Origin: Aminithiophilus ramosus
Lineage (GTDB): Bacteria > Synergistota > Synergistia > Synergistales > Aminithiophilaceae
NCBI RefSeq assembly: GCF_018069705.1
Contig: NZ_CP072943.1
Span: forward strand, 2,943,945-3,007,944
Direction: 5' to 3'
DNA: 64,000 bases
Under the pieces are notes generated by a model. The model did not search any database. It was not told the origin of the DNA and saw only the letters and a list, made by a program, of their open reading frames with translations. Positions 5,920-35,290 of the stretch are shown here, in pieces (the stretch's first letter is position 1; each line of letters opens with the position of its first letter). A program made the position numbers and the translations under genes.

Positions 5920-6023
5920 GGTCCTGTCGGGCGAAAGTCCGCTGCCTGGCCGCCACGGCCCCCCGGCAGGCAGCGGTTGCGTCGTCGGCCCCGCCGGGCC
6001 GACGACGGAACGGGCACGACGAC

Positions 6024-6073
6024 AGAAGGAACGCGCAGGTCCGGATTTGCCGCCGGACCTGCGCGTTCCTTCT
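6024..6073. terminator. Hairpin terminator between convergent genes
   Basis: Perfect 21-bp inverted repeat AGAAGGAACGCGCAGGTCCGG / CCGGACCTGCGCGTTCCTTCT, followed by a T-rich tract on the plus strand. Confidence 0.6.
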
Positions 6074-6102
6074 GTTCTCTCGCTTTTGGTCGCCTCCGGC
6101 CT

Positions 6103-11837: not shown

Positions 11838-12974
11838 TCAGCCGATGACGAGGCTTTCCAGATCTTTCGGATAGGATGTGACCTGTCTGGCCCCCCCGGC
11901 CGTGACGATGACGGTGTCGGAGTGACGGAAGCCCCCCCGGCCCCGCAGATAGAAGCCGGGTTCGATGGACAGGGCCATGCCCTCCTTCAGGACAACGTCG
12001 TTGTCGAAACGAAGCGACGGCTCTTCGTGGGAGGTGACGCCGATGCCGTGGCCCGTACGGTGGTCGAAGGCCTCGCCGAATCCGGCCCCGTCGATGACGC
12101 GCCTGGCGGCTCCATCGACGTCGCCGGCCCGGACTCCCGGCCTGACGGCCGCGACGGCCGCCGCCTGGGCCTCGGCCATGACGGCAAAACACCGACGTTG
12201 GAAGGGATCGGCCGATCCGACGAAAAAGGTCCTTTCGCATTCGGCCCTGTAGCCGTTCAGGCCGACCTGGCGGCTGTGGATGACGCCATCTCCGAGCTGA
12301 AGAGCGCGCGTGCTGGAAAAGACATGCTGCATGGCGCTTCTCTCCCGTCCGGAAGGACTCATGACGAAATGATCCACCGTGGCCGAGGGGAAATCCCTGG
12401 CCACTCGAGCGAAAAGAGCCGACGTGCCGGCCAGATCCAGCTCCATTTCCGTCATGCCCGGACGGGCCCGTTCCAGAGAGGCCCTGAGGGCGTAGCTGAC
12501 GAGGTCTCCGGACAGGGTGATGGCCTCGATTTCCTTGGGCTCCTTGACCGTTCTGGCCAGGGCGATATCACGTCCCACATCGACGAGGACGAAGCCCTTT
12601 TCCTCGAGGAAACGGCCCAGCTCCAGGGGAAGGTATCCCTTCTCGACGCCCAGGCGGCACGAGGGCCTCAGGGGGGAGACAAGGGCGTCGAGAGCCGCCA
12701 GGAAGGAAGATCCTCTGTCGATTCGCTCGGGCGTCTCGTGATAGATCTGAAGACGGTCGGCACGGGCCTCCTTCCGGACGTGCTCCTCCTCCAGGGAAGG
12801 AAGGGCCATGGAGAGCCCGTCGCTTTCGACCAGATAGGCGAAGGGACGGGAATAGATGATGGCCTTGAAGCCGCTGAGATAGAAAAGATCGTCAGGCTGA
12901 AGAATCAACGAGGCCTCGACGTTCCTTTCCTCCATGACCCCTCGCAGGGCACGAAGCCGTTCTTCCGTGTTCAC
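11838..12974 (-). CDS. M24 family metallopeptidase (Xaa-Pro aminopeptidase/prolidase-like)
   Basis: Creatinase N-domain followed by a pita-bread fold with the metal ligands (HGIGHGIGVTSHEEP, ALSIEPGFY). Confidence 0.75.
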   Translation of the reverse strand: MNTEERLRALRGVMEERNVEASLILQPDDLFYLSGFKAIIYSRPFAYLVESDGLSMALPSLEEEHVRKEARADRLQIYHETPERIDRGSSFLAALDALVSPLRPSCRLGVEKGYLPLELGRFLEEKGFVLVDVGRDIALARTVKEPKEIEAITLSGDLVSYALRASLERARPGMTEMELDLAGTSALFARVARDFPSATVDHFVMSPSGRERSAMQHVFSSTRALQLGDGVIHSRQVGLNGYRAECERTFFVGSADPFQRRCFAVMAEAQAAAVAAVRPGVRAGDVDGAARRVIDGAGFGEAFDHRTGHGIGVTSHEEPSLRFDNDVVLKEGMALSIEPGFYLRGRGGFRHSDTVIVTAGGARQVTSYPKDLESLVIG

Positions 12975-12987
12975 CTGACCATCTCCT

Positions 12988-14103
12988 TCAGCTCAGTCTG
13001 TCCGGATTGAGATCCCCCAGGGCCTCGACGACGAAAAGACCGTCCTTGCGGATCAGCCTGTCGTCGAAGTAGATCTCCCCTCCCCCGTATTCCGGCCTCT
13101 GGATGCAGGTGAAATCCAGATGCACCGAGGAGCGGTTGCCGTTGTCGGCATTGGCATAGGCGTTGCCCGGCGTCAGATGGAAGCTGCCGGCGATCTTCTC
13201 GTCGAAGAGGACATCGGCCATGGGGTGGAGAATCTCGGGGTTGACGCCGAGGGCGAACTCGCCGGGGAATCGGGCTCCCTCGTCCGTGTCCAGGATGGCC
13301 TCGAGGCGCGGTCCGTCGTTGCAGGAACAGGCGACGACGCGCCCCTCCCGAAAGACCAGCTCCACATCGGAGAGGACGAAGCCCTCGTAGGGAAAGGGGA
13401 CATTGAAGCGCACCCGCCCCTCGACGGAACCCCGGACCGGCGCCGAATAGACTTCGCCGTCGGGAAGATTGCGGCGACCGGCCAGGGCGACGGCTCCTAT
13501 CCCCTTGATGGAGAAGGCCAGATCGACGCCGGGACCGACGACGCGGACCCGATCGGTCCCCTCCATCAGGTCGACGAGAGGCCTCATGGCCCGCTCCATC
13601 CGGCCGTAGTCGACGAGACAGGCCCCGAAGTAGAAGTCCTCGAAGGCCTTCGTGCTCATTTTGGCCTGTTGGGCCATGGCGTCGTTGGGGTAGCGCATGA
13701 CGCTCCACCGGGTATGGCCGCAACGGCGCTGCAGATGGAGGGGACCGAAGTAGCGGCTCCGGTAGAGGTCGAGCTTTTCCTGAGGCACGTCGCTCCAGGC
13801 GTAGAGGTTTTCCGTCCCCCTGATGTCCACGTAGGCATCCATCTTCTCCATCCGGGCCACCTCGAAGGCGGCGATCTCCTCCAGAAGAGAGGCGTCGGCT
13901 CCCCGCAGAAGGGCCCGCTCCAGACGGTAGTCGTGGCGGTGGACGAAAGGACGGGCCCCTCTGTCGAAGCTCTCCTCGACGACGGCCAAGGCCAGAGGCA
14001 GCCCCTCGCCGTGAAGTTCGACGAGCAGACGGTCCCCGCGCTGCAGTTCAAGGGCGAAATCGACGATATGCCGGGCCAGCAGGCGAACTCTCCCGTCTTC
14101 CAT
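12988..14103 (-). CDS. Aminopeptidase, M29 (AmpS/aminopeptidase T)-like
   Basis: Motifs RRNLPDGEVYSAP and VHLDF resemble the M29 family. Size is consistent. Confidence 0.5.
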   Translation of the reverse strand: MEDGRVRLLARHIVDFALELQRGDRLLVELHGEGLPLALAVVEESFDRGARPFVHRHDYRLERALLRGADASLLEEIAAFEVARMEKMDAYVDIRGTENLYAWSDVPQEKLDLYRSRYFGPLHLQRRCGHTRWSVMRYPNDAMAQQAKMSTKAFEDFYFGACLVDYGRMERAMRPLVDLMEGTDRVRVVGPGVDLAFSIKGIGAVALAGRRNLPDGEVYSAPVRGSVEGRVRFNVPFPYEGFVLSDVELVFREGRVVACSCNDGPRLEAILDTDEGARFPGEFALGVNPEILHPMADVLFDEKIAGSFHLTPGNAYANADNGNRSSVHLDFTCIQRPEYGGGEIYFDDRLIRKDGLFVVEALGDLNPDRLS

Positions 14104-14113: not shown

Positions 14114-15517
14114 CTAGCGGGCCGCCGTCTCCGGCCGACGGCCGGTGACGAGACTGACGACGATCAGGACGAGGATGGACATAGGAGCGGCGACGAGAAT
14201 GGCGTTCCAGCCCAGGGGCCGTTTGAGGACGATCTCCCAGATCAGCACGGCGGCACCGCCCGTAACGATGGAGGCCAGCCCTCCGGCCTTGGAGACGCCC
14301 GGCCAGAGGATGGCCCCGAGAAGGGCCGGAGTGATGGCCGCTCCGTACATGGAATAGGAGTACATCTGCATCTTGAGGATGTCGGGGAAATAGGTCCCGA
14401 TGACGTAGGCCAAAAGCCCCAGGGCGACGATACAGGCCCGGGTGTAGACGATCTTCTCCCGCTCCGTCATATCGGGCTTGAAATACTTCTGGATGATGTC
14501 GTAGACGACGTTCGTGGCCGTAGAGAGGAGAAAAGAGTCGCCCGTCGTGATCATGAAAGCCACGGCCGCCGCCAGGATGACGCCTCCGATGACGAAGGGG
14601 ACGCCGCCCATGGCCATCTGGAGGATGGCCGTGTCGGGTCGGATGCCGGGGAAGAGGACGATGGCCGCCGTGGCGTAGGTGACGGCCAGACCGATGACGA
14701 GCCACTCGCCGATGAAGAAGCCGACGTTGGAGCGGGCCGCCGTCTTGGCGTCCTTGGCGCAGCCGAAGCGTTGGAACATGTTCTGGTCACCGAGGATGAG
14801 GAAAATCAGCGGGAGGATATAGCCCAGAAGCTGAACCGTCGAAAGCCCGCCCGACCAGGAAAGCTGTGCCGGCGAGAGCTGGCCGAGAATGGAGCTCCAG
14901 CTTCCCGCCTTCCCGAAGACGAAGGGCAGTCCGATCCCCATTCCGCCGACGATGAGCAGAGCGCTGAAGAAATCCGTGTAGGCGATCGTCACCATCCCTC
15001 CCGTGACGGCGAGCAGGACCATGACAAAGGCGGAAATGATGGTCCCCGTCTGAAGATCCATGCCCGTCGTCAGGTTGAGGACGTAACCGCCTCCCTTGAA
15101 CTGGTAGGAAATGATCCCCAGATAGGCCAGCATGATGCAGATCGCCGAAAGGAAACGAGCCAGAGAGCCGTAGCGCATCTCCAGAATCTGGGGCACCGTG
15201 TAACGCGCCAGGGCACGCACCTTGCCGGCGACGAAGAAGAGGATGACGATGCCCACAGGGGCTCCGATGAAAAAAAGCAGCCCGGCAAAGGGCCCGTAGG
15301 TGTAGATGAAATTGGCCGATCCGGTGACCGTGCCTCCTCCGACCCAAGTGGCCAGAAGCGTTCCGACGAGGACGAGCAGAGGCAGACGGCGTCCGGCCAC
15401 CATGAAATCATCGCTGTTGCCGACCTCCCGCTTGCCCAGGAAAAGCCCCATGAGAACCAGCAGGACCAGGTATCCTCCGACAAAAAGCAGGTACGACGAA
15501 TCGCTCACCACAGTCAC
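14114..15517 (-). CDS. Sodium:solute symporter (SSS family)
   Basis: About 13-TM protein with the SSS-type N-terminal region (GKREVGNSDDFMVAGRRLP). Confidence 0.75.
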   Translation of the reverse strand: MTVVSDSSYLLFVGGYLVLLVLMGLFLGKREVGNSDDFMVAGRRLPLLVLVGTLLATWVGGGTVTGSANFIYTYGPFAGLLFFIGAPVGIVILFFVAGKVRALARYTVPQILEMRYGSLARFLSAICIMLAYLGIISYQFKGGGYVLNLTTGMDLQTGTIISAFVMVLLAVTGGMVTIAYTDFFSALLIVGGMGIGLPFVFGKAGSWSSILGQLSPAQLSWSGGLSTVQLLGYILPLIFLILGDQNMFQRFGCAKDAKTAARSNVGFFIGEWLVIGLAVTYATAAIVLFPGIRPDTAILQMAMGGVPFVIGGVILAAAVAFMITTGDSFLLSTATNVVYDIIQKYFKPDMTEREKIVYTRACIVALGLLAYVIGTYFPDILKMQMYSYSMYGAAITPALLGAILWPGVSKAGGLASIVTGGAAVLIWEIVLKRPLGWNAILVAAPMSILVLIVVSLVTGRRPETAAR

Positions 15518-15558: not shown

Positions 15559-16296
15559 TCAGGCACCGCGTTCTTGACGACTCGCCTCCTTCTCTTCCGG
15601 CGACGCGAAATAGAATTCCTCCACAAGCGTTTTCTGACGCTCGTAGTTCCAGTGCACTTCCGCCATGTACAGAGCCGCTCCCTGGCGATCCCCCCGAGCC
15701 AGGAAAGCCACCAGTTCACGGTGTTCCTCAAGAGAGCGGCTCGCCCAGCGCGGCGTGAACCGACGGCGCGCCGGGAAATCGTAGAGCCGCTTTCTCAGCC
15801 TGTCGGCCAACCCCAAAAGCAAATCGTTTTCCGAGACGGAAAGAAGCGTCTCGTGAAAACGACGGTTCAGCTCCCAATATCTCTCGTAGAGCCCCTCCCG
15901 AAGGACCATGGCCGTCTCGGCGTTGACGGCCTCCAGACGGGCCATGCAGTTTCCGCCGATGCGGCCGAAGTCCTGGAGGATCACCGAAGACTCCAAAGCC
16001 CCCAGCACCTGATAGGCATGCGCGATCTCGTCGGCCGTAAGGCCACGGACCTCCACGCCCCGTCGCGGATGAAAGAGGACGAAGCCCTCTCCCTGAAGCT
16101 CGAAAAGGGCATCGCGCAGCGGTGTCCGGCTGATTCCCAGGCGGGCGCTCATCTCCCGGATGTTGATCATCTGGCCGGGGCAGAGACGGCCGGCGGCCAT
16201 CTCCTCTTTCAGGAAATCATAGACCTGCTCCCGCAGAGCCTTGAAATTGAAGGAGACATCCAGAGCCACAGCCACTCCTCCTCGCTTTTCCGCCAT
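15559..16296 (-). CDS. GntR-family (FadR/FCD subfamily) transcriptional regulator
   Basis: N-terminal wHTH (MSARLGISRTPLRDALFELQGEGFV) and C-terminal FCD-like helical domain. Confidence 0.8.
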   Translation of the reverse strand: MAEKRGGVAVALDVSFNFKALREQVYDFLKEEMAAGRLCPGQMINIREMSARLGISRTPLRDALFELQGEGFVLFHPRRGVEVRGLTADEIAHAYQVLGALESSVILQDFGRIGGNCMARLEAVNAETAMVLREGLYERYWELNRRFHETLLSVSENDLLLGLADRLRKRLYDFPARRRFTPRWASRSLEEHRELVAFLARGDRQGAALYMAEVHWNYERQKTLVEEFYFASPEEKEASRQERGA

Positions 16297-16349
16297 GCCA
16301 TTCTCCTGTTGGAATCTGGAATTCCAGATTCCAACAGGAGAATGGCATG
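16294..16349. promoter_or_regulatory. 56-bp perfect palindrome spanning the start codon/RBS and upstream region of the GntR gene
   Basis: Every base 16294-16349 pairs with its mirror partner (CATGCCATTCTCCTGTTGGAATCTGGAATTCCAGATTCCAACAGGAGAATGGCATG). Verified base by base. Confidence 0.7.
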
Positions 16350-16382
16350 CTTTTCTGGTCTTGTCAACAGTTCCGATGCCTC

Positions 16383-16418
16383 AAGAAAAGAGGCGCCCTC
16401 GAGGGCGCCTCTTTTCTT
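16383..16418. terminator. Palindromic terminator-like hairpin downstream of the GGDEF gene
   Basis: AAGAAAAGAGGCGCCCTC / GAGGGCGCCTCTTTTCTT, a perfect 18-bp arm with T/A runs inside the stem. Confidence 0.5.
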
Positions 16419-16448
16419 CCATCCTTGTCTCCTTCGGCTTTGTCTCCT

Positions 16449-17669
16449 TCAGCGGATGCAGCTTCTTCCTGCGGCCTTGGCCCGATAGAGGGCCCCGTCG
16501 GCCGCAGCCAGCAGGGCCTCTCCATCGCGACCGTCTTCGGGGAAGAGGGCGACGCCGATGCTGCACGAAAGAGAGATTCCGTCTGTGGAGGAGCCGATCG
16601 TCTCGATGGCCTCCTTGAGACCTTCCGCCGCCGCCTGCGCGACGCGACGGTCGGCCATCTCTTTCATGAGAACGACGAATTCGTCTCCGCCGAGGCGGGC
16701 CACGACGTCTCCCGGTCCGGCGCTCTCGGAGAGTCTGCGGCCGATCTGACGGAGAAGAGCGTCGCCTCGGCCGTGGCCGAAGGAATCGTTGACCTCCTTG
16801 AAGTGATCCAGGTCGAGATAGGAAAGGGCGAAGGGGTCGCCTTTTTCGAGGAAGTCGCGAAGGGTGGCCATGAGGGCGCGACGGTTCATGAGATCGGTCA
16901 GGTCGTCGCGGCAGGCCTGTTCAAGGGCAGAGGCCTCCCGGTCCTTCTGATCGGTGATATCGACGGCGACGGCCAGGATTTGCGTGACGGAACCTCTCTC
17001 GTCGCGCCGGAAGGGCGTCTCTCTGACGAGGAACGTCCGATACCGGCCGTCGCGGTGACGGAAACGGAGGATGACCTCCGTCGACTGCCCCTCCGCCAGA
17101 GGAGCCAACCGTTCCGGCAGGGCCCGGACGACGGGAAGATCGTCGGGATGGAGGATCGACGCGACGGGAAGGGATCGGCTGCAGCGATACCCCAGAGGGC
17201 TGAGCCCCTCCTGGCTGAGGAGGACGGAACGCCCCTCGGAGACGAAGTAGAGGAAGGCCGCCTGGGGAACGGAGCTGTGAAGCCGCTCCAGGAAGGCCTC
17301 GCCCGCGGCGAGGGCCTCCTCCTCGCCGACGCGGACGCTGATGTCGACGGCCGTCACGTAGAGCCTGGCCCGGCGTTCCTCGCGAAAGAGAGAGAGTTCC
17401 ACCCAGAGCGCCCCCCCCTTTCGACGGCGAAGGCGGACATCGAGCGTCGCCTCTCTCTCGAGACGACGCAGAACGCCCTCGACCAGACGGGCGTCCTCCT
17501 CGTGAACGAGATGGCAGAGCGGCTCTCCCCGAATCTCCGAAAGGGCCATGGCCGTCGCCTCCAGCCAGGCCGGGTTGACGGCAATCAGGCGTGCCCTGTC
17601 GTCGCAGACGGCCATGAGATGGCGGCTGCGCGAGAAAAACTGCTTCAGGTCCTCTCCGGTGATCTCCAT
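16449..17669 (-). CDS. PAS-domain diguanylate cyclase (GGDEF)
   Basis: Two PAS-like segments and a C-terminal GGDEF domain with an intact RLGGDEF motif. Confidence 0.8.
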   Translation of the reverse strand: MEITGEDLKQFFSRSRHLMAVCDDRARLIAVNPAWLEATAMALSEIRGEPLCHLVHEEDARLVEGVLRRLEREATLDVRLRRRKGGALWVELSLFREERRARLYVTAVDISVRVGEEEALAAGEAFLERLHSSVPQAAFLYFVSEGRSVLLSQEGLSPLGYRCSRSLPVASILHPDDLPVVRALPERLAPLAEGQSTEVILRFRHRDGRYRTFLVRETPFRRDERGSVTQILAVAVDITDQKDREASALEQACRDDLTDLMNRRALMATLRDFLEKGDPFALSYLDLDHFKEVNDSFGHGRGDALLRQIGRRLSESAGPGDVVARLGGDEFVVLMKEMADRRVAQAAAEGLKEAIETIGSSTDGISLSCSIGVALFPEDGRDGEALLAAADGALYRAKAAGRSCIR

Positions 17670-19072: not shown

Positions 19073-19110
19073 CGGCCGTTTCTACCTCGACGGCGAGGGA
19101 AAACGCGGAA

Positions 19111-19158
19111 GGGAGCACAAAGGGGGCGCCGCTTTTTCGGCGCCCCCTTTGTGCTCCC
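19111..19158 (+). terminator. Intrinsic terminator hairpin
   Basis: GGGAGCACAAAGGGGGCGCC loop CTTTTTC GGCGCCCCCTTTGTGCTCCC, a perfect 20-bp stem. Confidence 0.6.
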
Positions 19159-19363
19159 TTCCGCCTCCCCTGCCGAGAGGCAGACTCCCTCTGCGGGGGG
19201 AGGACGCGACAGCCTCCGGCAAACCTTTCCGTCCCCGTTGATCTCCGATCCGCCCCTGAAAGGAATACAAATTTGACAACGGAACTTCCCTGACCTACAC
19301 TTTCGACATCACCCCCTGTTTAGGAAATATCTTTTCCAAATAGGAAACAAGGAGAGACGCCCA

Positions 19364-24929: not shown

Positions 24930-25193
24930 CTATTCAATATCCGTATTACCTCTATAACGCAGGTTTTTTCGTTCAAATGAAATCAATCCTCCATTTTCGT
25001 CGAGAAAGACATCGTAACGACCCAACACATCCATCGTTTCCGGTATGGATTTACGCTCAAGCCCTTCGACAGACACAATCCATTGACCATCCATCCTAGA
25101 AACTCCCACCACTCTCTCTACAGAAAGTTGAGCTAAAAGAGAAAGATCTTCTCTGGCTTTTTTAATAGCCTCTTCAGCATTCACAATTTTCAC
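24930..25193 (-). CDS. Small hypothetical protein, last gene of the gvp operon
   Basis: 87-aa ORF, AT-rich codon usage like the rest of the island. No recognisable motif. Confidence 0.4.
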   Translation of the reverse strand: MKIVNAEEAIKKAREDLSLLAQLSVERVVGVSRMDGQWIVSVEGLERKSIPETMDVLGRYDVFLDENGGLISFERKNLRYRGNTDIE

Positions 25194-25215
25194 TTCCCAT
25201 CATTATATTTACATT

Positions 25216-25779
25216 TCAAGCTATAGAGTTAATCCTATTTTCTAAAACGGATTTGATTTTAAGCATATCACGAGAACGCAACAAGAATGAACCACCTGAC
25301 ACAAGAGAGAAATCCATGACATCCATTTCCAAACTACCTTCATCTTTCTTTTTAGTTACATTAAATATATTTACATCCGACAAAAAACATCTCAATATGA
25401 CATTTTTAGAGTTGTTTTGAGAAACAATTAGTTCGTTAGATGTAATACAAAGAAATCCTGATTTCCAATTTTCATAAGGACAATTATTTTTTAGTATAGA
25501 AACAAATGTTTTCAAAAAGACTTTTTCATTCAAATTTAAAATAAGTTTATTTTTTTCTGTTTCTTCAATGGCATATGCCCTTTGAGCTTCATCCCAATCA
25601 TTCCATATGCCATAACGAAGCATTGTCTCCATTCCAGCAATACAAGCCTTAAGACTTAATCCTAACAAAGGAATTCCAGCAACATGAATAATTATATCAG
25701 CATGAAGAACAATTCCTTTATCTAGAATTCTCTCTAACAAATCAACCAAAGTTGCATCGTAATCCCTAGTAGGCTTCAT
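25216..25779 (-). CDS. GvpJ/GvpM-family protein (GvpA-like core plus C-terminal extension)
   Basis: N-terminus LVDLLERILDKGIVLHADIIIHVAGIPLLGLSLKACIAGMETMLRYG aligns with the GvpA core. Confidence 0.7.
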   Translation of the reverse strand: MKPTRDYDATLVDLLERILDKGIVLHADIIIHVAGIPLLGLSLKACIAGMETMLRYGIWNDWDEAQRAYAIEETEKNKLILNLNEKVFLKTFVSILKNNCPYENWKSGFLCITSNELIVSQNNSKNVILRCFLSDVNIFNVTKKKDEGSLEMDVMDFSLVSGGSFLLRSRDMLKIKSVLENRINSIA

Positions 25780-25788
25780 GCTAACGCT

Positions 25789-26625
25789 TTATTCCACGTA
25801 GTTAGAGCTAATACTCCGAGAAATTCCACTTATATCACCAACAAAGCTATAAAGTGGCCAAGGCCCTGTAAATCTGACAGAAAAACTATCATATAATTTT
25901 ATTTCATCCAAAAAATTACCTAAACCGTCAATTTTATCGTTATCAACCATACAGGACAGGTTTAATATCATTTTAGACGAAGCATCAGTTTTTTTAGGCT
26001 TTTCTATTACAATTTCACTGCAGCAAGACAAAACTTTATTATAAAAATAATCAGAAAACTTATTTATTTCAATTAAAACTTCATCCTTAATGGCCTTATC
26101 TAGTTTTTGTTTATACATATAAGCAACTCCCGGAGACTTCAAATCAATATCTTGCTTTAATTTAAGTAGATATTTATTTTCAAAAGCTATTTTATTTTCC
26201 AAAACATCCGTTGCACAAAAAAGCTGGACAACATATTCATTTTTATTTTTAAATCTACGCATCATGCAGGTTAGAGATTCTTGCTCTTCTTGAAGCCATT
26301 TTAATATTACATGATCAGAAGAAAGCTCTCCCTGAGCGCAGACAATCGTATCAAAACTAACAGGGACAACACAATCAAACACCTTACTCGCTTCATCGAG
26401 CACTCGATGATGATCCATCACCCACGCTCGAACTGAATCCGCCTCTGCCGATCGATAAGGCTGCGGAAGACAATCATGAACGATAGCGCATAAATCCCCG
26501 GAGATAATCATGCGAACCGGTTTGCCACCAATCCCCAAAGAAGTGAAAGACACTCTCTCCAAAATCAAGGCAAGACCATAAACGTACCTCCCATCCTCTT
26601 CAAAAGGTGGAAAAACCTTCTCCAT
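25789..26625 (-). CDS. Gas vesicle protein GvpF/GvpL family (copy 2)
   Basis: N-terminal YVYGLALI..GIGG..V motif typical of GvpF/L. Size 278 aa. Confidence 0.65.
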   Translation of the reverse strand: MEKVFPPFEEDGRYVYGLALILERVSFTSLGIGGKPVRMIISGDLCAIVHDCLPQPYRSAEADSVRAWVMDHHRVLDEASKVFDCVVPVSFDTIVCAQGELSSDHVILKWLQEEQESLTCMMRRFKNKNEYVVQLFCATDVLENKIAFENKYLLKLKQDIDLKSPGVAYMYKQKLDKAIKDEVLIEINKFSDYFYNKVLSCCSEIVIEKPKKTDASSKMILNLSCMVDNDKIDGLGNFLDEIKLYDSFSVRFTGPWPLYSFVGDISGISRSISSNYVE

Positions 26626-26696
26626 CGCCAGCGCCCCCTCATTCAGACAAAAAAGGCCCTGTCCTCCATGGCAAACCCATGGCTAAAGCCTCATCT

Positions 26697-27011
26697 TTAT
26701 CTATCAATCTCATCACGCCAACGCTCTGGATTCACAATACGATCCAAAACGTCACCAACCACTTGATCCAATCCATCGCGCACAGCTTGAACCGACTCAA
26801 CAAGGTCATTATCCTTTTTGATTTCTTCTAGAGCAATTTCAAGCTCCATTAAAGCCTCTCCAAGACGCTCACACTCTGCCTCTCGGATAGAGCCTTCATC
26901 CATTCTTTTAACGGCTTCAATTTTAAGAGCATCGCGAATGACTTCAACAAGAGCTACGACCAACCCCAACAACCCCTGCTTCAAATTTCCTTCGTCAATA
27001 TTAAGAGACAT
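26697..27011 (-). CDS. gvpK: Gas vesicle protein GvpK
   Basis: LLGLVVALVEVIRDALKIEAVKRMDEGSIREAECERLGEALMELE matches the GvpK consensus. Confidence 0.7.
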   Translation of the reverse strand: MSLNIDEGNLKQGLLGLVVALVEVIRDALKIEAVKRMDEGSIREAECERLGEALMELEIALEEIKKDNDLVESVQAVRDGLDQVVGDVLDRIVNPERWRDEIDR

Positions 27012-27014
27012 TAA

Positions 27015-27455
27015 TTACTCCTTGTCAAGCGTTATCTTCAACACACCATTCCTATATTCAATTATATGAGACATTTCGTTTGGTATTCTAGGGACGACGT
27101 TCACGGATGCGATTAAAGTAATTTTATTCCCTTCAGAATATATATCCATACATGAAAATTCTTTATTTAATCCTATCTCATCCACAAACCACCACTGGAA
27201 AAACCATTGCTTACCGTCACACGGATCTATTTTTGATTCTTTAAAAACAATAATGGAGTATCCTAATATTTTTTCAGAATTTGTATTTATTATATGTTTT
27301 ATTCTATAAATTATCTCAAAGTCATTCCTACAGCTTAAATCCCGTCTAAGATCCACTATGCTTGCATGACGTCTCCACCAAACGTCCAGCAGCAAAATTT
27401 TGCTTATTGAATCTATGGAATCCAACAAGTCAGATAAAAAATTCCTGTTGTCCAT
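27015..27455 (-). CDS. Hsp20/alpha-crystallin-like small protein (possible GvpH-type chaperone)
   Basis: C-terminal ...EYRNGVLKITLDK resembles the Hsp20 C-terminal beta strand. Weak overall. Confidence 0.4.
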   Translation of the reverse strand: MDNRNFLSDLLDSIDSISKILLLDVWWRRHASIVDLRRDLSCRNDFEIIYRIKHIINTNSEKILGYSIIVFKESKIDPCDGKQWFFQWWFVDEIGLNKEFSCMDIYSEGNKITLIASVNVVPRIPNEMSHIIEYRNGVLKITLDKE

Positions 27456-27463
27456 ATTTAAAT

Positions 27464-27844
27464 TTAATCTACGATAGCAATGGATTCTTCGTTTTTATCC
27501 AACAAAGACTCTCTAGCCCTGGCACTGACCCATCCGCACCAAGGACAACATTTCGACAAAAGCTCTTCCGTAAAAACTCGCTTTCCGCACTGAGGACATG
27601 TTTCCTTGCCTTTTTGCGCTTCTTTCCAGGCATCTGTATTGTAATTTGTTCCACTTGGAAATTCCAATCCATAATGAGCCGCAGTTTCGAAAGAAGCTAA
27701 AGCAGCTCGTATCTTTATTCCAAGCAATTCAACACCTGCTACAGACACGCAAATATCGGCATTGATAACTAAACCCTTATCTAAAACACGGTCGATAACA
27801 TCGACCAGCGTCGAACTTGCCTCTCGTGTGGGTTGCATAGACAT
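27464..27844 (-). CDS. GvpJ/GvpA-family protein fused to a C-terminal zinc ribbon
   Basis: LVDVIDRVLDKGLVINADICVSVAGVELLGIKIRAALASFETAAHYG (GvpA-like) followed by CPQCG...CPWCG. Confidence 0.7.
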   Translation of the reverse strand: MSMQPTREASSTLVDVIDRVLDKGLVINADICVSVAGVELLGIKIRAALASFETAAHYGLEFPSGTNYNTDAWKEAQKGKETCPQCGKRVFTEELLSKCCPWCGWVSARARESLLDKNEESIAIVD

Positions 27845-27853
27845 CGACCGTTC

Positions 27854-28090
27854 TCACCTCTCAGCCTTTATTTTTTTTAATCTTTCTATTAGATCATTTT
27901 CGAGTTCATCGTATTCATTTTCACTCAAGTTTCCATCTTCCAATGATTTTTGAATTTCTTTAAGCCTAGCTCTAATGGCATCTTCTGTCATCAGGCCTTC
28001 CTTATCTATTTCTTTTTTAATGGCAAGAATAATTTCTTTCGACAAAATAACGGGGATACCTATGAAAATATCTTTTATTAAACCTAACAT
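27854..28090 (-). CDS. gvpG: Gas vesicle protein GvpG
   Basis: 78 aa. MLGLIKDIFIGIPVIL...GNLSENEYDELENDLIERL matches the GvpG family pattern. Confidence 0.7.
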   Translation of the reverse strand: MLGLIKDIFIGIPVILSKEIILAIKKEIDKEGLMTEDAIRARLKEIQKSLEDGNLSENEYDELENDLIERLKKIKAER

Positions 28091-28842
28091 GGTTTTTTAA
28101 AATAATTCATTTCCACATTCAAAAACGTATAGGGAGGCAGAGGAGCAATACACTTAAAATTAAATTTATTATTATACTTTTCATCCAATTTATGGATTGA
28201 TTTTATAAAATCGTCTTTATCGGCTTTTTTTACAAGAAATGAGGCGTTTAGCACATTTTCTATACCAGATTCAGAGTCTTTATGGCTATCAAGAGCTATA
28301 TTTTTGAAATAACCATATATATCATCAGAATAAATATTTCTTTTGTCTAGAAGCAATGATTCTACTAATTTGCCAGCATCTATTTTAATATTTTGTTTTT
28401 CTAACAAAGAAGATGTTTTATTAATTTTAGATTTAATTTTAACTATTTCCTTGTTGTTGACTTCAATTTCTTTTATTTCTGAGTTATAATCCCAATAAAC
28501 CTTGACAACCACCTCAATGACGCCTGATAACCGATTTATTTCATTGACTATGGATTCTTTGCTTTTTTGCAGTAAATCCATCATTTCATTCTTAGATGCA
28601 AGTACACCAAATCCTGCTGGGAGTAAAGTGTATTTATCCATCAAAAATTCTTGCACGGTCGCGTGTGTGGAAATATTTTTCCTGGTCGGATATATTTCAT
28701 CGTTACCAAAGTCACTGACAACAGCAGAAATTTTATCTATACTAATAGAATAAACTTTTGAACTATTAATACCAATTACATCAAAAATCTTAAAATCAGG
28801 CTCATTTATAATACCATAAAAATATTTATTTTTAATATTCAT
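28084..28842 (-). CDS. Gas vesicle protein GvpF/GvpL family (copy 1)
   Basis: KYFYGIINEP...KVYSISIDKISAVVSDF is the GvpF/L N-terminal signature. Confidence 0.65.
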   Translation of the reverse strand: MNIKNKYFYGIINEPDFKIFDVIGINSSKVYSISIDKISAVVSDFGNDEIYPTRKNISTHATVQEFLMDKYTLLPAGFGVLASKNEMMDLLQKSKESIVNEINRLSGVIEVVVKVYWDYNSEIKEIEVNNKEIVKIKSKINKTSSLLEKQNIKIDAGKLVESLLLDKRNIYSDDIYGYFKNIALDSHKDSESGIENVLNASFLVKKADKDDFIKSIHKLDEKYNNKFNFKCIAPLPPYTFLNVEMNYFKKPC

Positions 28843-28846
28843 AAAA

Positions 28847-30973
28847 TCACCTCTTGCGTTCCATTACACTATTAATGGCTAAATCAAAATGATTTTTAAG
28901 TATAACAATTTTATTTTCACCGTTTGAAGCCATATATTCTCTTAACGCCAAGCGAGCTGCTTCTTGACATAACTGCTTGAGCTCTGCTCCAGAAAAATCT
29001 TCTGTACGCATAGAAATTTCTTCAAGCGAGACATCGCCATCCAAAGGCATTTTTTTGCTATGTATCTTAAGGATTTCTATCCGATCATCTTTATCTGGAA
29101 GATTGAAATTTAAAATTAGATCAAATCTGCCCGGGCGAATGATCGCTGGATCTATCAAATCTTGCCTATTGCTTGCAGCTAAAACTAAAACATCTTTGAG
29201 CTCTTCAATTCCATCCATTTCGGAGAGGAATTGGCTGATTACTCGATCAATAACTTGAGAATCTCCAAAAGAATGTCTTAGAGGGACCAATGAATCAAAT
29301 TCATCGAAAAATAAAATACAAGGGCTTGCCTGTCTCGCTTTACGAAATACCTCTCGAACTCCTTTTTCCGACTCTCCAACATATTTAGACAAAAGCTCCG
29401 AGCCTTTTACGGATATGAAATTAATTTCACTTTCGTTGGCCATGGCCTTCACCACTAACGTTTTACCCAATCCGGGAGACCCCGAGAGCAAGATGCCCTT
29501 CGGCGGCCGAAGCCCCACGCTCGCAAGCAGCTCGCCATGCTTAAGCGGCCAAGCCACCGCCTCCGAAAGCTGCCTCTTGATCTCGCGAAGGCCACCGACA
29601 TCTTCCCAGCTCACGTCGGGCACCTCCACGAAAACCTCCCGAATGGCCGATGGTTCCACTTCTTTGAGGGCACCAAGGAAGTCGTCCATCATCACTTCCA
29701 TTTGCAAAATATCGATGTCGGCGACCTCTTCGATCCGACAGGTGTAATCGGGAACGACCCTCCGCAGGACGCTCATGGCTGCCTCCCGACACAGGGCCTC
29801 CATATCGGCACCGACAAAACCGTGAGTCACTCGCGACAACCTCTCCAAATCGACATCGGAGGCGAGCGGCATGCCTCGAACGTGGATGCTCAATATCTCC
29901 AACCTGTCCCTCTGGTCCGGTATGGCGATCTCCAGCTCCCGATCAAACCGTCCCGGGCGACGAAGCGCCGGATCCAAGGCGTTGGGTATATTCGTCGCAC
30001 CGATGACAATGACGTCACCGCGCGACTCTAGGCCATCCATCAGAGCCAACAGCTGCGCGACCACCCGCCTCTCCACCTGTTTCTCCCCGCCCATTTCCTC
30101 CCGCTTGGGGGCAATGGCATCGATCTCGTCGATAAAAAGAATCGACGGGGCATTCTTTCTGGCCTCTTCAAAAAAGCCCCTCAACCTGGCCTCGCTCTCA
30201 CCATAAAACTTGCCCATAATTTCAGGCCCCGTCACATGGACGAAATACGCTGCCGTTTCACTGGCGACAGCCCTGGCGATCAGGGTTTTTCCACAGCCCG
30301 GAGGACCATAGAGCAATACCCCCTTCGGGGGATCTATACCCAGTCGATCGAAAAGGCGGGGACATTTCAGAGGAAGTTCGATCATTTCTCGTATTTTTTT
30401 AAGCTCTCTTGACAATCCACCTATATCTTCATAGGATATTTTGGATCTTTTAGTTGAATTTTGTTGAATTTTATCTAATAAAATACGAGTTTTTTGCGAA
30501 ATAAGGACAGGTCCGCCAGGAGTGGTATTATTGACCAAAAAATCCTGATTCCTGTTTCCCATAAAGTTAACTCTTATGAAATCACCCTCTATAACGGCAA
30601 GACCTGTCAAAATGGATCCTATATAGGAAATATCCTTATCTCCAAGTGGAATACGAACGTTTGACAAAGGAGCTATGACAATCTTTTCCGCTAATTTAAA
30701 ATCTATCTTTATTACATTGACGTTATTGTTCAATGACGTTTTTGCATTGTTTCTTAGAGTCCAATCCATTTGAATTATTCTTTTTCCTCGATCTTGCGGA
30801 AAAGTAGGCATTATTTTAGCTATAGTTTGCCTTTCTCCTTCAATCTGAACCACATCGCCTACACTTACACCCATTATTTCCATATCTACAGGGTCTATGC
30901 GAACAATTCCTCTCCCGACATCTTTTAAATTAGATTCAGCTACAATAAATACTGAATTATTGATTTTTCCCAT
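28847..30973 (-). CDS. CDC48/VCP-like AAA+ ATPase (N-domain plus two AAA domains)
   Basis: CDC48-type N-domain (SNLKDVGRGIVRIDPVDMEIMGVSVGDVVQIEG) and two Walker A motifs, GPPGCGKT and GSPGLGKT. D1 is encoded by a GC-rich block. Confidence 0.8.
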   Translation of the reverse strand: MGKINNSVFIVAESNLKDVGRGIVRIDPVDMEIMGVSVGDVVQIEGERQTIAKIMPTFPQDRGKRIIQMDWTLRNNAKTSLNNNVNVIKIDFKLAEKIVIAPLSNVRIPLGDKDISYIGSILTGLAVIEGDFIRVNFMGNRNQDFLVNNTTPGGPVLISQKTRILLDKIQQNSTKRSKISYEDIGGLSRELKKIREMIELPLKCPRLFDRLGIDPPKGVLLYGPPGCGKTLIARAVASETAAYFVHVTGPEIMGKFYGESEARLRGFFEEARKNAPSILFIDEIDAIAPKREEMGGEKQVERRVVAQLLALMDGLESRGDVIVIGATNIPNALDPALRRPGRFDRELEIAIPDQRDRLEILSIHVRGMPLASDVDLERLSRVTHGFVGADMEALCREAAMSVLRRVVPDYTCRIEEVADIDILQMEVMMDDFLGALKEVEPSAIREVFVEVPDVSWEDVGGLREIKRQLSEAVAWPLKHGELLASVGLRPPKGILLSGSPGLGKTLVVKAMANESEINFISVKGSELLSKYVGESEKGVREVFRKARQASPCILFFDEFDSLVPLRHSFGDSQVIDRVISQFLSEMDGIEELKDVLVLAASNRQDLIDPAIIRPGRFDLILNFNLPDKDDRIEILKIHSKKMPLDGDVSLEEISMRTEDFSGAELKQLCQEAARLALREYMASNGENKIVILKNHFDLAINSVMERKR

Positions 30974-31502
30974 TTTTAGGAGATATTTCTATTTTAAAAA
31001 TTCCATTTAAATAAGAATGAAGGAGTGTGTTTTGGTTTACATTGAATTCAGTTTTGATTTCCTTAAAGTATTTTCTTGATTTGCTCTCTGCTTGAACAAC
31101 TATAGTTCCATCTGTTATTTCAATCATAATATCTTCTTCATTCACGCCGGGCATTTCTAGAACTATAACCATTCTATCTTTTTCGTTAAAAATATCCGTT
31201 ATAGGTTCCCTGACTTCTTGTTGGTTATTTTCCAAATCAGATATTTTTTTATTTCCAAATGTTTCAATTATCGGCTTGCCTGCTAAATTTTTTACAGTAA
31301 AACCATAAATGCCCCGAATTCCTTCGGGGCTTTCAATAGATCCCTTTTTTTCAACTACATCAAACCTATCGACCATATCCAATAAACTACCTAACCCCTT
31401 AAAAATTCCTTCAAAACTTATTTTACCTTTTTTGAAATCTATCTCTATTTTATCTTTCTCTTCATCCGGATTTTCTTTTTTTTTACTATTATCCATTGTC
31501 AT
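30957..31502 (-). CDS. Hsp20/alpha-crystallin family chaperone (GvpH-like)
   Basis: Alpha-crystallin domain: MVIVLEMPGVNEEDIMIEITDGTIVVQAE ... NGIFKIEISPK. Confidence 0.75.
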   Translation of the reverse strand: MTMDNSKKKENPDEEKDKIEIDFKKGKISFEGIFKGLGSLLDMVDRFDVVEKKGSIESPEGIRGIYGFTVKNLAGKPIIETFGNKKISDLENNQQEVREPITDIFNEKDRMVIVLEMPGVNEEDIMIEITDGTIVVQAESKSRKYFKEIKTEFNVNQNTLLHSYLNGIFKIEISPKNGKNQ

Positions 31503-31535
31503 TTACGCAACACCCCGATCTAGGCGCTAAAACAT

Positions 31536-32465
31536 CTAATAATTCTCAACATTACCATATGGTTCTCTTTCAATATTGCTGGCTGCATCAATAATAAGCC
31601 TAGAAACCGAGGCTCTTTTTTTACTTGATATAATTGGCAATATAGTATCGTTGCATATTTCAATAAATCTATCTTCAGATATGTTGCCCTTTTTATCCAA
31701 AAAATCTATATATTTCGCTATTTTAATAGAAGACCGCACAGTGGGAGTAAGTTTATCCGAATAGTTATTTCTTATGGTTCTTATTAATTTAACTATTCTA
31801 ACTATTTCGCTTTCACATAAATCCACTCTACCTCGCACAATTGCTACTTCCGTCTCTTCGTCAAAGCTGCTTAACTCCAATGTTACCAGTCTATCTTTTA
31901 ATGCATCTTGACTTTTATAAACACCGGCATATTCCTCTGGGTTGGACGTGAATATCGCCCTGAAGTCGGGATGAACCCTAACGTAAGACTCTTTACCATT
32001 TCTACCCGAAACAGGAAGTATTTTACTCTCCAGCACTGATAAAAGGACGTTATTGGCCTCTGGTCTAGATCTAGTGAATTCATCATAGACAAGCGTCAGT
32101 CCACGCTCACACGCGACAGTCAGCCTGTTATCAAACCACTGAGACGTCATTACATCTTCTGTCTTGACAACAGACCTAATAAAATTGTCTTTAGTGTAAT
32201 TATGACGATATCCGGACACATAACCGACCAGATCGGAAGTTCCAAATTCATGATCACCACAAATCAAAACGACAGGACGACCTATTTTTGCGGCCACATG
32301 CATCGCTAAAGTCGTCTTGCCCACTCCAGTAGGTCCGCTTAAATGAATAGGAAAGCCACAGGAAGAATAACTAAGGGCTTTTTCGGATATTTTTGATATG
32401 TATGGAGTTTCTACAAACTCCAAGCTTGGCCTTGAAGTAATAAGCGTCATCCTTCCTCGATCCAT
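31536..32465 (-). CDS. gvpN: Gas vesicle protein GvpN (MoxR/CbbQ-like AAA+ ATPase)
   Basis: Walker A LSGPTGVGKTTLA, Walker B LVYDEF. Size 309 aa is typical of GvpN. Confidence 0.8.
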   Translation of the reverse strand: MDRGRMTLITSRPSLEFVETPYISKISEKALSYSSCGFPIHLSGPTGVGKTTLAMHVAAKIGRPVVLICGDHEFGTSDLVGYVSGYRHNYTKDNFIRSVVKTEDVMTSQWFDNRLTVACERGLTLVYDEFTRSRPEANNVLLSVLESKILPVSGRNGKESYVRVHPDFRAIFTSNPEEYAGVYKSQDALKDRLVTLELSSFDEETEVAIVRGRVDLCESEIVRIVKLIRTIRNNYSDKLTPTVRSSIKIAKYIDFLDKKGNISEDRFIEICNDTILPIISSKKRASVSRLIIDAASNIEREPYGNVENY

Positions 32466-32492
32466 AACTTAAATACCTCCAAAATCACAGGA

Positions 32493-32873
32493 TCAGTAAT
32501 GCATTTCAAAATTCTCATCATTCACTGCGTCGCCATCGCTTGAGTCGCACATATCAGAGCTATTCTCTTTTTGCAGTTCTCTGCGCAACTCCATCAGGGC
32601 TTTATTTTTGTCAATAATAACTGCAAGCTTCTTTCTGGAATTCAAAAGGCGCGCCCTGGCTCTCTCGACCGATTGCAACCTAGAGGCGAAACGCCTCTTC
32701 TCTCGCTCGAGCATCGTTTGGAAATTGCGATCCTTTTCCAAATCCGGAGCATCGTTATTATCAAAGGCACGAAACAAAGCACCTGTCGTCCTGGCTTTTT
32801 GGCCACGGAAAACTTCAGCATTGCTTTTAATATGGCGCATTGTTCGAAGTTTAGTCAGAGCTTCACTTTTCAC
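32493..32873 (-). CDS. Hypothetical basic protein between the coiled-coil gene and gvpN (possible GvpO-like)
   Basis: 126 aa, helical and charged, with an acidic C-terminus. No firm motif. Confidence 0.4.
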   Translation of the reverse strand: MKSEALTKLRTMRHIKSNAEVFRGQKARTTGALFRAFDNNDAPDLEKDRNFQTMLEREKRRFASRLQSVERARARLLNSRKKLAVIIDKNKALMELRRELQKENSSDMCDSSDGDAVNDENFEMHY

Positions 32874-33888
32874 CGATTTCTACCTCCCCTTCTGACAAAG
32901 GGAAATAAAGCTTACCCTCCCTTCGAATCCCGCCCTCATCCAAGAGATTTCTTGACACTCGTCCCAACGCCACTGTGGCCATGCCCAACTTATCGGCCAC
33001 ATCGGTCAGGGAGATACCTTCAGGATGCGCCTTAATGACTGACAAAAACCTGGTCTTAAGATCTTCCCCCGTCACAGCAAAGTCCTCTTCCTCCGTTGCG
33101 CGTTCAAGTACGGAGCAATCCGGGTCCCTCTCATCCGCCTCGGGAGAGGCGTCATCTCTTGATTCGACGGAAGGTTCGGCTTCAACCTCATCGTCTTCGC
33201 AAGACTCTTCATTCACAAGGCATTCCGACCAAACCGCTCTCGTCTCCTCAAGCAAGTCAATAATGACCTGCCTTTCTTTGTTTAAATTATTTCTTAACAT
33301 ATCTACGCTTTGTTTCATGTTGGAAATATCCGCTAATCTTTTTTGACGTAATTCATCGAATTGATTTTTTAATGATTCACGAATGTCACTTAAAATATCT
33401 TTAACCTCTTTATGCAGGTTTTCTATCTCAATCTTACGGTTATTGATATTCAATCTAACATTTTCATTATACTGTTTTTTTAGCGATAAAATCTTTTCTC
33501 TTGATGCTTCTATTCTCTTCTTATTTTCTTCTTTGAGCTCTTCTCTTATATCTGGGGTATTTTTTTGGGATGCCAACCTTGACGCCTCAAAAAGAAGATC
33601 AAGCTCTTTTTTGAAGCCATCCAACATATCTGCCGTGGATTTTTTAATTTCCATGACTTCTTCTTCTATTTTCTTTTTATTTTGAACCAGCTTTGATTTC
33701 ATCGACTCTTTCTCATCAAATCTCTCGGTAGAAAAGGTTTTAAGTGTTTCATCTATTGTTTTTTTAAGATCTTGGAGATTTTGATATCTATCGGCATGAG
33801 AATCAGCCAACTCCTGAACCAATGACCTAGTCTCTTCCAATAAATTCACAGTCCATCCCTCCTCGGTTATTATGGTTTTAAATCTCAA
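32863..33888 (-). CDS. Coiled-coil protein with C-terminal winged-helix (MarR/ArsR-like) domain
   Basis: About 230 aa of heptad-rich, K/E-rich sequence, then ISLTDVADKLGMATVALGRVSRNLLDEGGIRREGKLYFPL. Confidence 0.5.
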   Translation of the reverse strand: MRFKTIITEEGWTVNLLEETRSLVQELADSHADRYQNLQDLKKTIDETLKTFSTERFDEKESMKSKLVQNKKKIEEEVMEIKKSTADMLDGFKKELDLLFEASRLASQKNTPDIREELKEENKKRIEASREKILSLKKQYNENVRLNINNRKIEIENLHKEVKDILSDIRESLKNQFDELRQKRLADISNMKQSVDMLRNNLNKERQVIIDLLEETRAVWSECLVNEESCEDDEVEAEPSVESRDDASPEADERDPDCSVLERATEEEDFAVTGEDLKTRFLSVIKAHPEGISLTDVADKLGMATVALGRVSRNLLDEGGIRREGKLYFPLSEGEVEIGEK

Positions 33889-33939
33889 AACCCATTATTT
33901 TGCAATTTAACATAAAAATTCATCTAAATGCATTAATAA

Positions 33940-34641: not shown

Positions 34642-34732
34642 TTTCGATACTTGGCCTCCCGAGGAAGGGCATATGGCCTGGCAGGGCACGCTTGCGAAAC
34701 AAGGGAACCCTGGCAGACCTCCACAAAGGAAC

Positions 34733-34942
34733 TTACGCGGAGATCGGAGCCGTCAGGCCGACCGCTTCGGCGTACTTCAGGTAGGTCTCCACACCGGCGA
34801 CGACCACCCGTGCCTCGACGGTCAGAAGTTCCAGCCCCAACAGGGAGATCCGCACCCACGCATCGATCACGAGACCCTTGTCGAGAATCCGATCGATGAC
34901 CTCAGCCAGACCCGACGAAGCCATAGACGTCTGCACTGCCAT
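34733..34942 (-). CDS. gvpA: Major gas vesicle structural protein GvpA (copy 3 of 3)
   Basis: [69 protein letters not shown] is canonical GvpA. Confidence 0.95.
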
Positions 34943-35011
34943 TTCGTTCCGCCTCCTTACGAGTCTTTCCTTGGGCTTTCCTTGCCTCCTGCGGGAGGGC
35001 GCCGCCGATCC

Positions 35012-35221
35012 CTACGCGGAGATCGGAGCCGTCAGGCCGACCGCTTCGGCGTACTTCAGGTAGGTCTCCACACCGGCGACGACCACCCGTGCCTCGACGG
35101 TCAGAAGCTCCAGCCCCAACAGGGAGATCCGCACCCACGCATCGATCACGAGACCCTTGTCGAGAATCCGATCGATGACCTCAGCCAGACCCGACGAAGC
35201 CATAGACGTCTGCACTGCCAT
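35012..35221 (-). CDS. gvpA: Major gas vesicle structural protein GvpA (copy 2 of 3)
   Basis: Protein identical to the other copies. RBS GGAGG 8 nt upstream of the ATG. Confidence 0.95.
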
Positions 35222-35290
35222 TTCGTTCCGCCTCCTTACGAGTCTTTCCTTGGGCTTTCCTTGCCTCCTGCGGGAGGGCGCCGCCGATCC

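Follow-up and report, generated by a model that had tools for sequence, protein, structure and literature searches.

What does a 56-bp perfect palindrome do across the ribosome-binding site (RBS) and start codon of a bacterial regulator gene? The question is raised by a 64,000-nt stretch of Aminithiophilus ramosus DNA (phylum Synergistota, contig NZ_CP072943.1; hereafter the window), in which a first-pass annotation had pointed to such an element at 16294-16349, at the beginning of a GntR-family gene (gntR). Direct inspection of the sequence confirmed both the symmetry and the overlap: the palindrome reads CATGCCATTCTCCTGTTGGAATCTGGAA followed directly by TTCCAGATTCCAACAGGAGAATGGCATG, with GGAATTCC at its centre, every mirrored position pairs, and the two 28-nt arms (16294-16321 and 16322-16349) are 100% complementary with a spacer of 0 nt. 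Read on the minus strand, its final triplet is ATG 16296..16294, the earliest start codon available to the GntR+FCD open reading frame (ORF) 15559-16296, and its proximal arm holds both this ATG and AGGAGA at 16307..16302. Most likely the element is an operator of a known kind, enlarged by a quirk of DNA copying, and not a new category of switch. We tentatively regard the palindrome as the promoter-proximal control region of a gntR-SSS-M29-M24 operon. Also tentative, and preferred among the mechanisms weighed below, is an autoregulatory FadR-type operator near +11, lying inside a palindrome of the operon's own -10 element and RBS that is kept symmetric mainly by template switching.

Could such a symmetry arise by chance or during assembly? 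The palindrome is the longest perfect hairpin of the whole window; when it was simulated 30 times under a first-order Markov model, the longest perfect arms measured 8-12 nt, and the analytic expectation for a zero-spacer palindrome with 28-bp arms is 3.9e-12 per window. A search of the window with the arm sequence at up to 3 mismatches returned two matches, which were the two arms themselves (0 expected). The GC content of the stem is 46%. The same 56-mer was recovered in an NCBI metagenome-assembled genome (MAG, L001) and in two ENA metagenome assemblies (L020, L021), and hence by independent assemblies and assemblers. Ten Logan contigs (L002, L009-L014, L023, L024 and L055), from at least 10 independent sequencing runs, begin at window position 16323, 2 nt off the centre. 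De Bruijn assemblers fail on perfect palindromes longer than k, which accounts for contigs breaking near the centre and turns these breaks into independent read-level evidence for a real palindrome; variant C (see below), whose centre is not palindromic, was assembled straight through, unlike the perfect palindrome. Thus, the palindrome is real, far beyond chance and not an assembly artefact. Breakage of this kind also leaves such palindromes systematically under-represented or truncated in short-read metagenome assemblies.

Is the palindrome conserved? The 90%-identity protein cluster of the regulator has nine members, whose contigs were retrieved and leaders aligned. In all relatives with at least 90% protein identity the palindrome occupies the same position, in three versions (variants A, B and C, Table 1). 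Absence from related genomes had been named beforehand as a finding that would speak against function; instead, the palindrome is kept, and kept self-complementary, in all relatives examined. Several features of its evolution emerged: (i) relative to A, T>C at 16341 in variant C pairs with A>G at 16302, and T>C at 16334 pairs with A>G at 16309, so that all four arm substitutions form two compensated pairs (chance probability 2e-4 to 6e-4), while A and C share 90-92% identity in their flanking genes; (ii) variant C has lost one 7-nt unit from the proximal arm and still forms a perfect stem because TGGAATC is tandemly repeated; (iii) all pairs are Watson-Crick in the three variants except two T.G (U.G) pairs in B, and no pair is disrupted; and (iv) the inner core CTGGAATTCCAG is invariant. 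In the same genomes, the terminator at 16383-16418 has lost outer pairs without compensation, which argues that palindromes in these genomes are not homogenised indiscriminately.

Beyond this cluster the trail stops abruptly. The regulator is 100% identical to a protein of A. ramosus, which occurs in digesters and at hydrocarbon sites, and its next homologues are 44-46% identical; no homologue of 46%-90% identity was present in the protein collection searched. Homologues of 39-46% identity (P0081, P0023) were rejected as orthologues: they lie in TRAP-transporter and glycyl-radical-enzyme loci, are paralogues, and have ordinary short promoter palindromes and no long hairpin. A protein query of metagenome contigs returned only paralogues of 39-40% identity, and a flank-pattern scan of metagenome contigs gave 0 matches; the scans also missed a 26-mer present in a JGI contig (L018). 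Genome contigs (596 Gb) scanned with the 18-mer core gave 23 matches, all in unrelated taxa, against 17.3 expected, and did not return the A. ramosus locus itself. Because these collections fail to return known sequences of the lineage, which are apparently absent or masked, their negatives say little about it. The palindrome is conserved and lineage-specific.

The first-pass annotation had also offered a tiny palindromic insertion, which found no support on comparison. A miniature inverted-repeat transposable element (MITE) or repetitive extragenic palindromic (REP) sequence would resemble this locus in shape alone, and GAAAAG does occur on both sides, immediately upstream and 3 nt downstream. 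However, the element is single copy in the window, the plasmid and phage collections searched held no match to it, and the matches to its 18-mer core are the unrelated ones just described. Among the relatives aligned there was neither presence/absence polymorphism nor a conserved flanking direct repeat: the palindrome stands at the same site in each of them, and GAAAAG, being offset and not conserved in variant C, is not a clean target-site duplication. A mobile or repeat element is therefore scarcely credible, and the same holds for the assembly artefact dismissed above. A target for a telomere resolvase or recombinase was likewise rejected, since the locus sits in conserved chromosomal synteny and lacks a mobile-element context.

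Where does transcription of the operon start? The palindrome begins 12 bp downstream of a conserved TTGACA, and TTGACA-17-TGC-CATTCT scored 14.27 bits with a sigma-70 weight matrix that is derived from E. coli and applied here to a Synergistota host; the next best candidate in the 190-nt region reached 5.3 bits. The frequencies in the matrix are those of E. coli promoters, and we know of no characterised Synergistota promoters. The candidate ranks 34 of 639,650 position/spacer combinations in the window. The pattern TTGACA-N16-18-NANNNT occurs six times in the window (1.39 expected), four of the six upstream of genes and in the right orientation. Variants A and C show 5 differences within 16372-16381, the 10 nt immediately past the terminator, and none from 16371 to the change in the -10 element at 16341. 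With the -10 element inside the distal arm, the transcription start site (TSS) is predicted to lie inside the palindrome too, at about 16332 (16333-16330). Counted from there, the palindrome centre lies at about +11, the Shine-Dalgarno (SD) sequence at about +26 to +31 and the ATG at about +37. A TSS downstream of the palindrome had been foreseen as the case that leaves only a DNA-level role; the predicted TSS, which is not a mapped one, comes close to this and lies within the distal arm. The main mRNA would therefore lack the anti-SD arm and leave the RBS free; the RNA folded from the predicted TSS forms a 9-bp 5'-terminal hairpin (GGAAUCUGG/CCAGAUUCC) in which the SD is unpaired. The weight-matrix scan found no sigma-70-like -10 element able to start transcription upstream of 16349. 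A sigma-54 promoter was considered and rejected, as the GG-N10-GC spacing around TGGCAT is unmet on both strands.

The symmetric core of the palindrome is a candidate operator. In the mechanism that we favour, transcription would start from the sigma-70-type TTGACA-17 nt-(TG)CATTCT promoter, with the TSS at about 16332 and the centre at about +11; one or more dimers of the FCD-type GntR protein would bind the core ATCTGGAATTCCAGAT and the TGGAAT boxes 7 bp away and block RNA polymerase; and a small-molecule ligand on the FCD domain would release the repressor, so that the regulator, the symporter and the two peptidases are induced together. This reading fits position, symmetry and family habit. 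The core lies at about +3 to +18 of the best predicted promoter of the regulator's own operon, its inner CTGGAATTCCAG is invariant, the nearest paralogues likewise have short palindromes in their promoter regions, and the regulator combines a GntR winged helix-turn-helix (wHTH) with a C-terminal domain of the FCD/FadR type, as FadR itself pairs a wHTH with an all-helical ligand domain. Sites of the FadR subfamily have the A/T-rich palindromic form TKGT-N2-3-ACMA, and weaker additional boxes often lie 7-12 nt from them; here, TGGAAT boxes recur 7 bp on either side of the core in variant A, and on the distal side only in variant C.

Comparison with the high-affinity FadR site of E. coli fadBA (ATCTGGTACGACCAGAT) revealed both likeness and difference. 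Aligned with it, the core (ATCTGGaATtCCAGAT) has identical ATCTGG/CCAGAT half-sites, with GG and CC 4 bp apart here and 5 bp apart there. As TGGA-AT-TCCA it matches three of the four positions in each TKGT/ACMA box and so falls short of the strict consensus, and the symmetric sequence measures 49-56 bp here compared with about 17 bp at fadBA. Against a site length of 12-20 bp, the whole palindrome is too long and only the 16-bp core fits. Of the residues with which FadR contacts DNA, R35, R45, T46 and R49 correspond to R47, R57, T58 and R61 in this regulator and T44 to S56, while T47 and H65 are not conserved; these contact residues are widely shared in the family. The earlier suggestion of a FadR-type operator is plausible for the 16-bp core but not for the half-site it had named, TGTTGGAATC, whose GT and AC are 22 bp apart, unlike FadR spacing, and whose matches in the window are no more numerous than chance. 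The lac operator O1 and the symmetric lac operator are palindromic repressor sites centred at about +11 that block their promoter; the candidate site is likewise a palindrome centred about 11 bp downstream of the TSS, although the regulator belongs to another family and the TSS is a predicted one. The internal symmetry of the outer arms was tried as a source of extra operators and discarded, since ATTC-N8-GAAT of the window is broken in variant C (ATCC...GAAT).

Several observations weigh against this reading. The TSS comes from an E. coli matrix applied to a Synergistota genome, the -10 element is weak (CATTCT, 3/6), and a default consensus promoter scan reported no promoter here. The GT/AC dinucleotides typical of the FadR subfamily are replaced by GA/TC, which is also where the core departs from fadBA. 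There is no second core-motif site in the 64-kb window, where copies of the arm or half-site stand at chance level (two weak matches near 25.6 kb fall within coding sequence of an AT-rich island). Paralogues whose promoter palindromes differ have almost the same recognition helix, SRTPLRDAL: the palindromes that the nearest paralogues carry at their promoters are short, such as ATCAGATATCTGAT at L052:1611-1624, with a different motif and no long hairpin. Moreover, an operator needs no arms of 22-28 bp; the stem ends exactly at the ATG and holds a canonical SD at 5-nt spacing; and the two uncompensated C>U changes of variant B lie opposite G, where they are wobble-compatible on the sense RNA only. 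Long arms, a stem that ends at the ATG with its SD, and wobble changes are what a function at the RNA level would predict.

Could the palindrome then act as a full-length leader hairpin? Transcription would have to cover both arms, either beginning at an unrecognised start further upstream or reading through from the GGDEF gene, and a stem of 22-28 bp would mask SD1 and AUG1; either RNase III would cut the duplex and free the RBS, or translation would run from SD2/GUG with the hairpin as a processing or stability element. The fold that the first-pass annotation proposed as a translational control hairpin is real: leaders fold at -50.6 (A), -45.2 (B) and -44.0 kcal/mol (C), fully paired, with z = -9 to -12, and AGGAGA and AUG lie inside a stem of 26-28 bp in the window and likewise in B and C. 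Pairing is conserved, with two compensated pairs in variant C, two G.U-compatible changes (the C>U changes of variant B give G.U on the sense and A.C on the antisense strand) and no disrupted pair across the three variants. Also in keeping with this hairpin are the 22-bp stem that stays perfect despite the 7-nt indel, the end of the stem exactly at the AUG, a second SD and GUG 13-27 nt downstream, and the loss of outer pairs without compensation in the nearby terminator of the same genomes. A perfect stem of at least 22 bp is the kind of duplex that RNase III cuts. Relief of RBS occlusion by RNase III has precedent in E. coli adhE and lambda cIII, where, as here, the SD and start codon lie within a long leader duplex; here, however, the predicted TSS is inside the distal arm and the occluding strand may be absent from the main mRNA.

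Several points tell against the leader hairpin: the only strong promoter candidate would start transcription within the distal arm, no sigma-70-like -10 element could start it further upstream, and a strong terminator stands 33 nt upstream of the palindrome. In addition, a stem of about -50 kcal/mol without an alternative pairing partner would be an off-switch with no visible on-mechanism, and the leader folds contained no competing structure to open it. The Rfam scan yielded no family, only sub-threshold eukaryotic microRNA-precursor models of the sort expected for any long hairpin, and template switching can yield compensated changes without selection. We consider the leader hairpin rather unlikely, but a live rival. 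If the operator mechanism holds, only transcripts that continue past the terminator of the GGDEF gene would form the complete 28-bp hairpin that masks the RBS.

How would an operator acquire such arms? The extended -10 element lies in the distal outer arm, CATGCCATTCTCCTG, and the canonical SD, the 5-nt spacer and the ATG lie in its mirror, CAGGAGAATGGCATG. We suggest that the -10 region on one side and the SD/ATG region on the other, as mutual reverse complements, make up the outer 15-20 bp of the arms, which would not be a surface for protein contact; this extension would have come from a replication template switch (an inverted copy) and been kept symmetric by further template switching. 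By template switching, perfect stems as well as multibase compensatory changes can arise in a single event (Monttinen and Loytynoja 2022, PMC8794818). The palindrome shares features with the hairpins of that study: a perfect reverse-complement repeat stands beside its putative source, and at low divergence changes are compensated, with none uncompensated in variant C. The differences are that those hairpins lie in RNA genes, with the direction of copying read from reconstructed ancestors, whereas this one spans a promoter and RBS, and its three variants come with no outgroup to polarise events. Two double changes and no single change at about 10% divergence are easier to obtain from a mutational process that alters both arms than from independent pairs of substitutions. 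The covariation thus shows that pairing is maintained and is not proof of RNA function, because template switching could give the same pattern.

A second SD and in-frame GTG codons lie 13-27 nt downstream of the ATG and are invariant in relatives, which makes the true gntR start codon uncertain. Paralogues start 5-13 residues later than the gntR ATG. Neither N-terminal length nor substitutions are decisive between ATG and GTG, amino-acid changes being scattered over the first ~20 codons and not confined to codons 2-3. One plausible history has the -10 region copied in inverted form into the leader, ahead of an older GTG start, with SD1 and the ATG created by accident; copying in the opposite direction, from the leader into the -10 region, is conceivable as well.

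If template switching accounts for the arms, need there be any function? The palindrome might be a by-product, an inverted copy of the -10/leader region that stays symmetric by mutation alone, with regulation, if any, elsewhere. Single switching events make both perfect stems and multibase compensatory changes, relatives only ~10% diverged make persistence weak evidence of selection, and no second operator-like site exists in the window. The compensated changes seen in another hairpin, at 19105-19164, suggest that the process is active in the lineage. Yet the element fills the interval from -17 to the start codon, in which the -10 element, the TSS and the SD must all work and where a random copy would usually be harmful; the core is FadR-like and adjoins a FadR-subfamily regulator gene; and the outer part of the terminator at 16383-16418 was not homogenised in the same genomes. 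A functionless by-product is thus improbable in our view. In relatives L004/L015 the compensated changes of the 19105-19164 hairpin are three in number and adjacent to one another, a hint that template switching, or else strong selection for hairpins, is common in the lineage.

Conversely, the self-complementarity may itself be the functional trait, an operator being combined either with an RBS-masking duplex licensed by RNase III (or a similar activity) or with a cruciform that hides the -10 element, and pairing being kept by selection. We rate this combination as unlikely too, on a par with the leader hairpin alone. Were it right, the locus would be a compact dual-level switch in a little-studied phylum, with a -10 element that mirrors the RBS, and it would control peptide uptake and hydrolysis, the core metabolism of Synergistota.

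As for a DNA cruciform on its own, negative supercoiling would extrude the palindrome, bury the -10 element and render the promoter sensitive to supercoiling. Work by Horwitz and Loeb in 1988 is said to provide an engineered precedent for promoter control by a cruciform. The perfect repeat has no spacer, its centre (AATT) is A/T-rich, the -10 element is within one arm, and the single-strand DNA hairpin is worth -31.2 kcal/mol per strand (-27.6 kcal/mol in variant C); a need for pairing at the DNA level would also explain symmetric evolution. However, variant C has a 5-nt non-palindromic centre with 22-bp arms, and variant B would carry two mismatches per hairpin. Extrusion in vivo of palindromes this short is generally rare. 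A cruciform is accordingly very improbable.

Finally, could the hairpin be an intrinsic terminator? On the sense strand the sequence after the stem is GCGGAAAAG, which contains no U-tract. On the plus strand CUUUUCU comes after the hairpin, which the consensus scan marks as terminator-like there, and the A-tract/T-tract at 16350-16356 is conserved in all variants, as would befit a terminator of antisense transcription. This T-tract, however, coincides with the predicted promoter spacer, and no credible plus-strand gene precedes it: the Pfam-supported genes between ~8.7 and 17.7 kb are all on the minus strand, and the plus-strand ORFs there are antisense to them and look spurious. The terminator hairpins elsewhere in the window (39786-39839, 19105-19164 and others) resemble the palindrome in having perfect arms of 21-27 bp and an intergenic position, at least one of them with compensated evolution; they differ in being GC-rich, placed at gene ends and followed by U-tracts, whereas 16294-16349 has a stem of 46% GC, stands at a gene start and lacks a sense U-tract. 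We judge termination of antisense transcription to be about as doubtful as a cruciform, or slightly more so.

If the operator mechanism is right, this is an ordinary autoregulated GntR/FadR-type operon whose operator lies engulfed in a perfect palindrome of unusual length. It would then be a clean natural case of template switching that builds and maintains a hairpin spanning promoter, TSS and RBS and leaves them undamaged, and a warning that compensatory changes in a stem are no proof of RNA function.

Table 1. Features of the gntR control region, its variants in relatives, and neighbouring genes (positions in the window; for variants, the sequences in which they occur).
Feature	Position or source	Strand	Remarks
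Perfect palindrome, 28+28	16294..16349	-	about -17 to +39 of the predicted gntR-operon promoter; conserved in relatives
Distal arm (5' on the gene strand)	16322..16349	-	extended -10 TGC-CATTCT and anti-SD CUCCU
Proximal arm	16294..16321	-	SD1 AGGAGA 16307..16302 and ATG 16296..16294
Core ATCTGGAATTCCAGAT, candidate operator	16314..16329	.	16 bp, about +1 to +22 of the predicted promoter
TGGAAT/ATTCCA boxes	16310-15, 16317-22, 16321-26, 16328-33	.	7-bp offset
Predicted -35 hexamer TTGACA	16362..16367	-	conserved block begins 4 nt upstream of it in all variants
Predicted extended -10 TGC-CATTCT	16339..16347	-	17-nt spacer; inside distal arm
Second SD GAGGAGGAG (16283..16275) and in-frame GTG (16275..16273, 16269..16267)	16267..16283	-	alternative start, possibly ancestral
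Variant A	window, MAG L001, ENA assemblies L020/L021		56-bp perfect palindrome
Variant B	L018/L019		sole difference from A: CC>TT at 16338/16337, in the arm opposite the SD
Variant C	ten contigs, ENA and Logan		CATGCCATCCTCCTGCTGGAAT-CTGGA-ATTCCAGCAGGAGGATGGCATG; 22-bp perfect arms, 5-nt loop
GntR-family regulator, FadR subfamily (wHTH + FCD), 245 aa	15559..16296	-	PF00392 E = 4e-14, PF07729 E = 1e-17
SSS symporter	14114-15517	-	Pfam
M29 aminopeptidase	12988-14103	-	Pfam
M24 (PepQ-like) peptidase	11838-12974	-	Pfam
PAS-GGDEF gene upstream of gntR	16449-17669	-	Pfam
Intrinsic terminator of the PAS-GGDEF gene	16383..16418	-	18+18 GC-rich hairpin and U-tract; upstream limit of the gntR control region
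GvpA/J-like gene	25216-25779	-	
GvpF/L genes, two	25789-26625, 28084-28842	-	
CDC48-like double-AAA ATPase	28847-30973	-	
GvpN-like AAA_5 protein	31536-32465	-	

Pfam searches confirmed the gene order expected around the palindrome, a GntR regulator followed co-directionally by an SSS symporter and M29 and M24 peptidases. On the minus strand the order is PAS-GGDEF gene, terminator, a 33-nt spacer, palindrome, gntR, SSS, M29 and M24. The gaps among the last four genes measure 10-41 nt, which argues for a single operon with the regulator as its first gene. The interval 16420-16448 (minus strand), which separates the GGDEF stop codon from the terminator, contains two copies of the 11-nt direct repeat GAAGGAGACAA, and in the relatives with variant C it is 11 nt shorter.

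In other Synergistota, the closest paralogues (44% identical), which head glycyl-radical-enzyme/TRAP loci, have in common a conserved A/T-rich element, GATATCTGATATATCT, in a TTGAYR...-10-like promoter (L052:1601-1635 and L050:3948-3975). At L052 the element includes the perfect 14-bp palindrome ATCAGATATCTGAT. It is probably the operator of the paralogues.

The window contains further long perfect hairpins, GC-rich, with arms of 18-27 bp, located at gene ends and terminator-like (39786-39839, 19105-19164, 6022-6075, 42050-42094 and 55342-55382). The one at 39786-39839 is a spacerless 27+27 palindrome whose stem includes A6/T6. Separately, a low-GC island at 25000-35500 (29-50% GC against a background of ~65%) carries a gas-vesicle gene cluster on the minus strand (Table 1). 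Unexpected in a Synergistota anaerobe, this gas-vesicle island was probably acquired horizontally.

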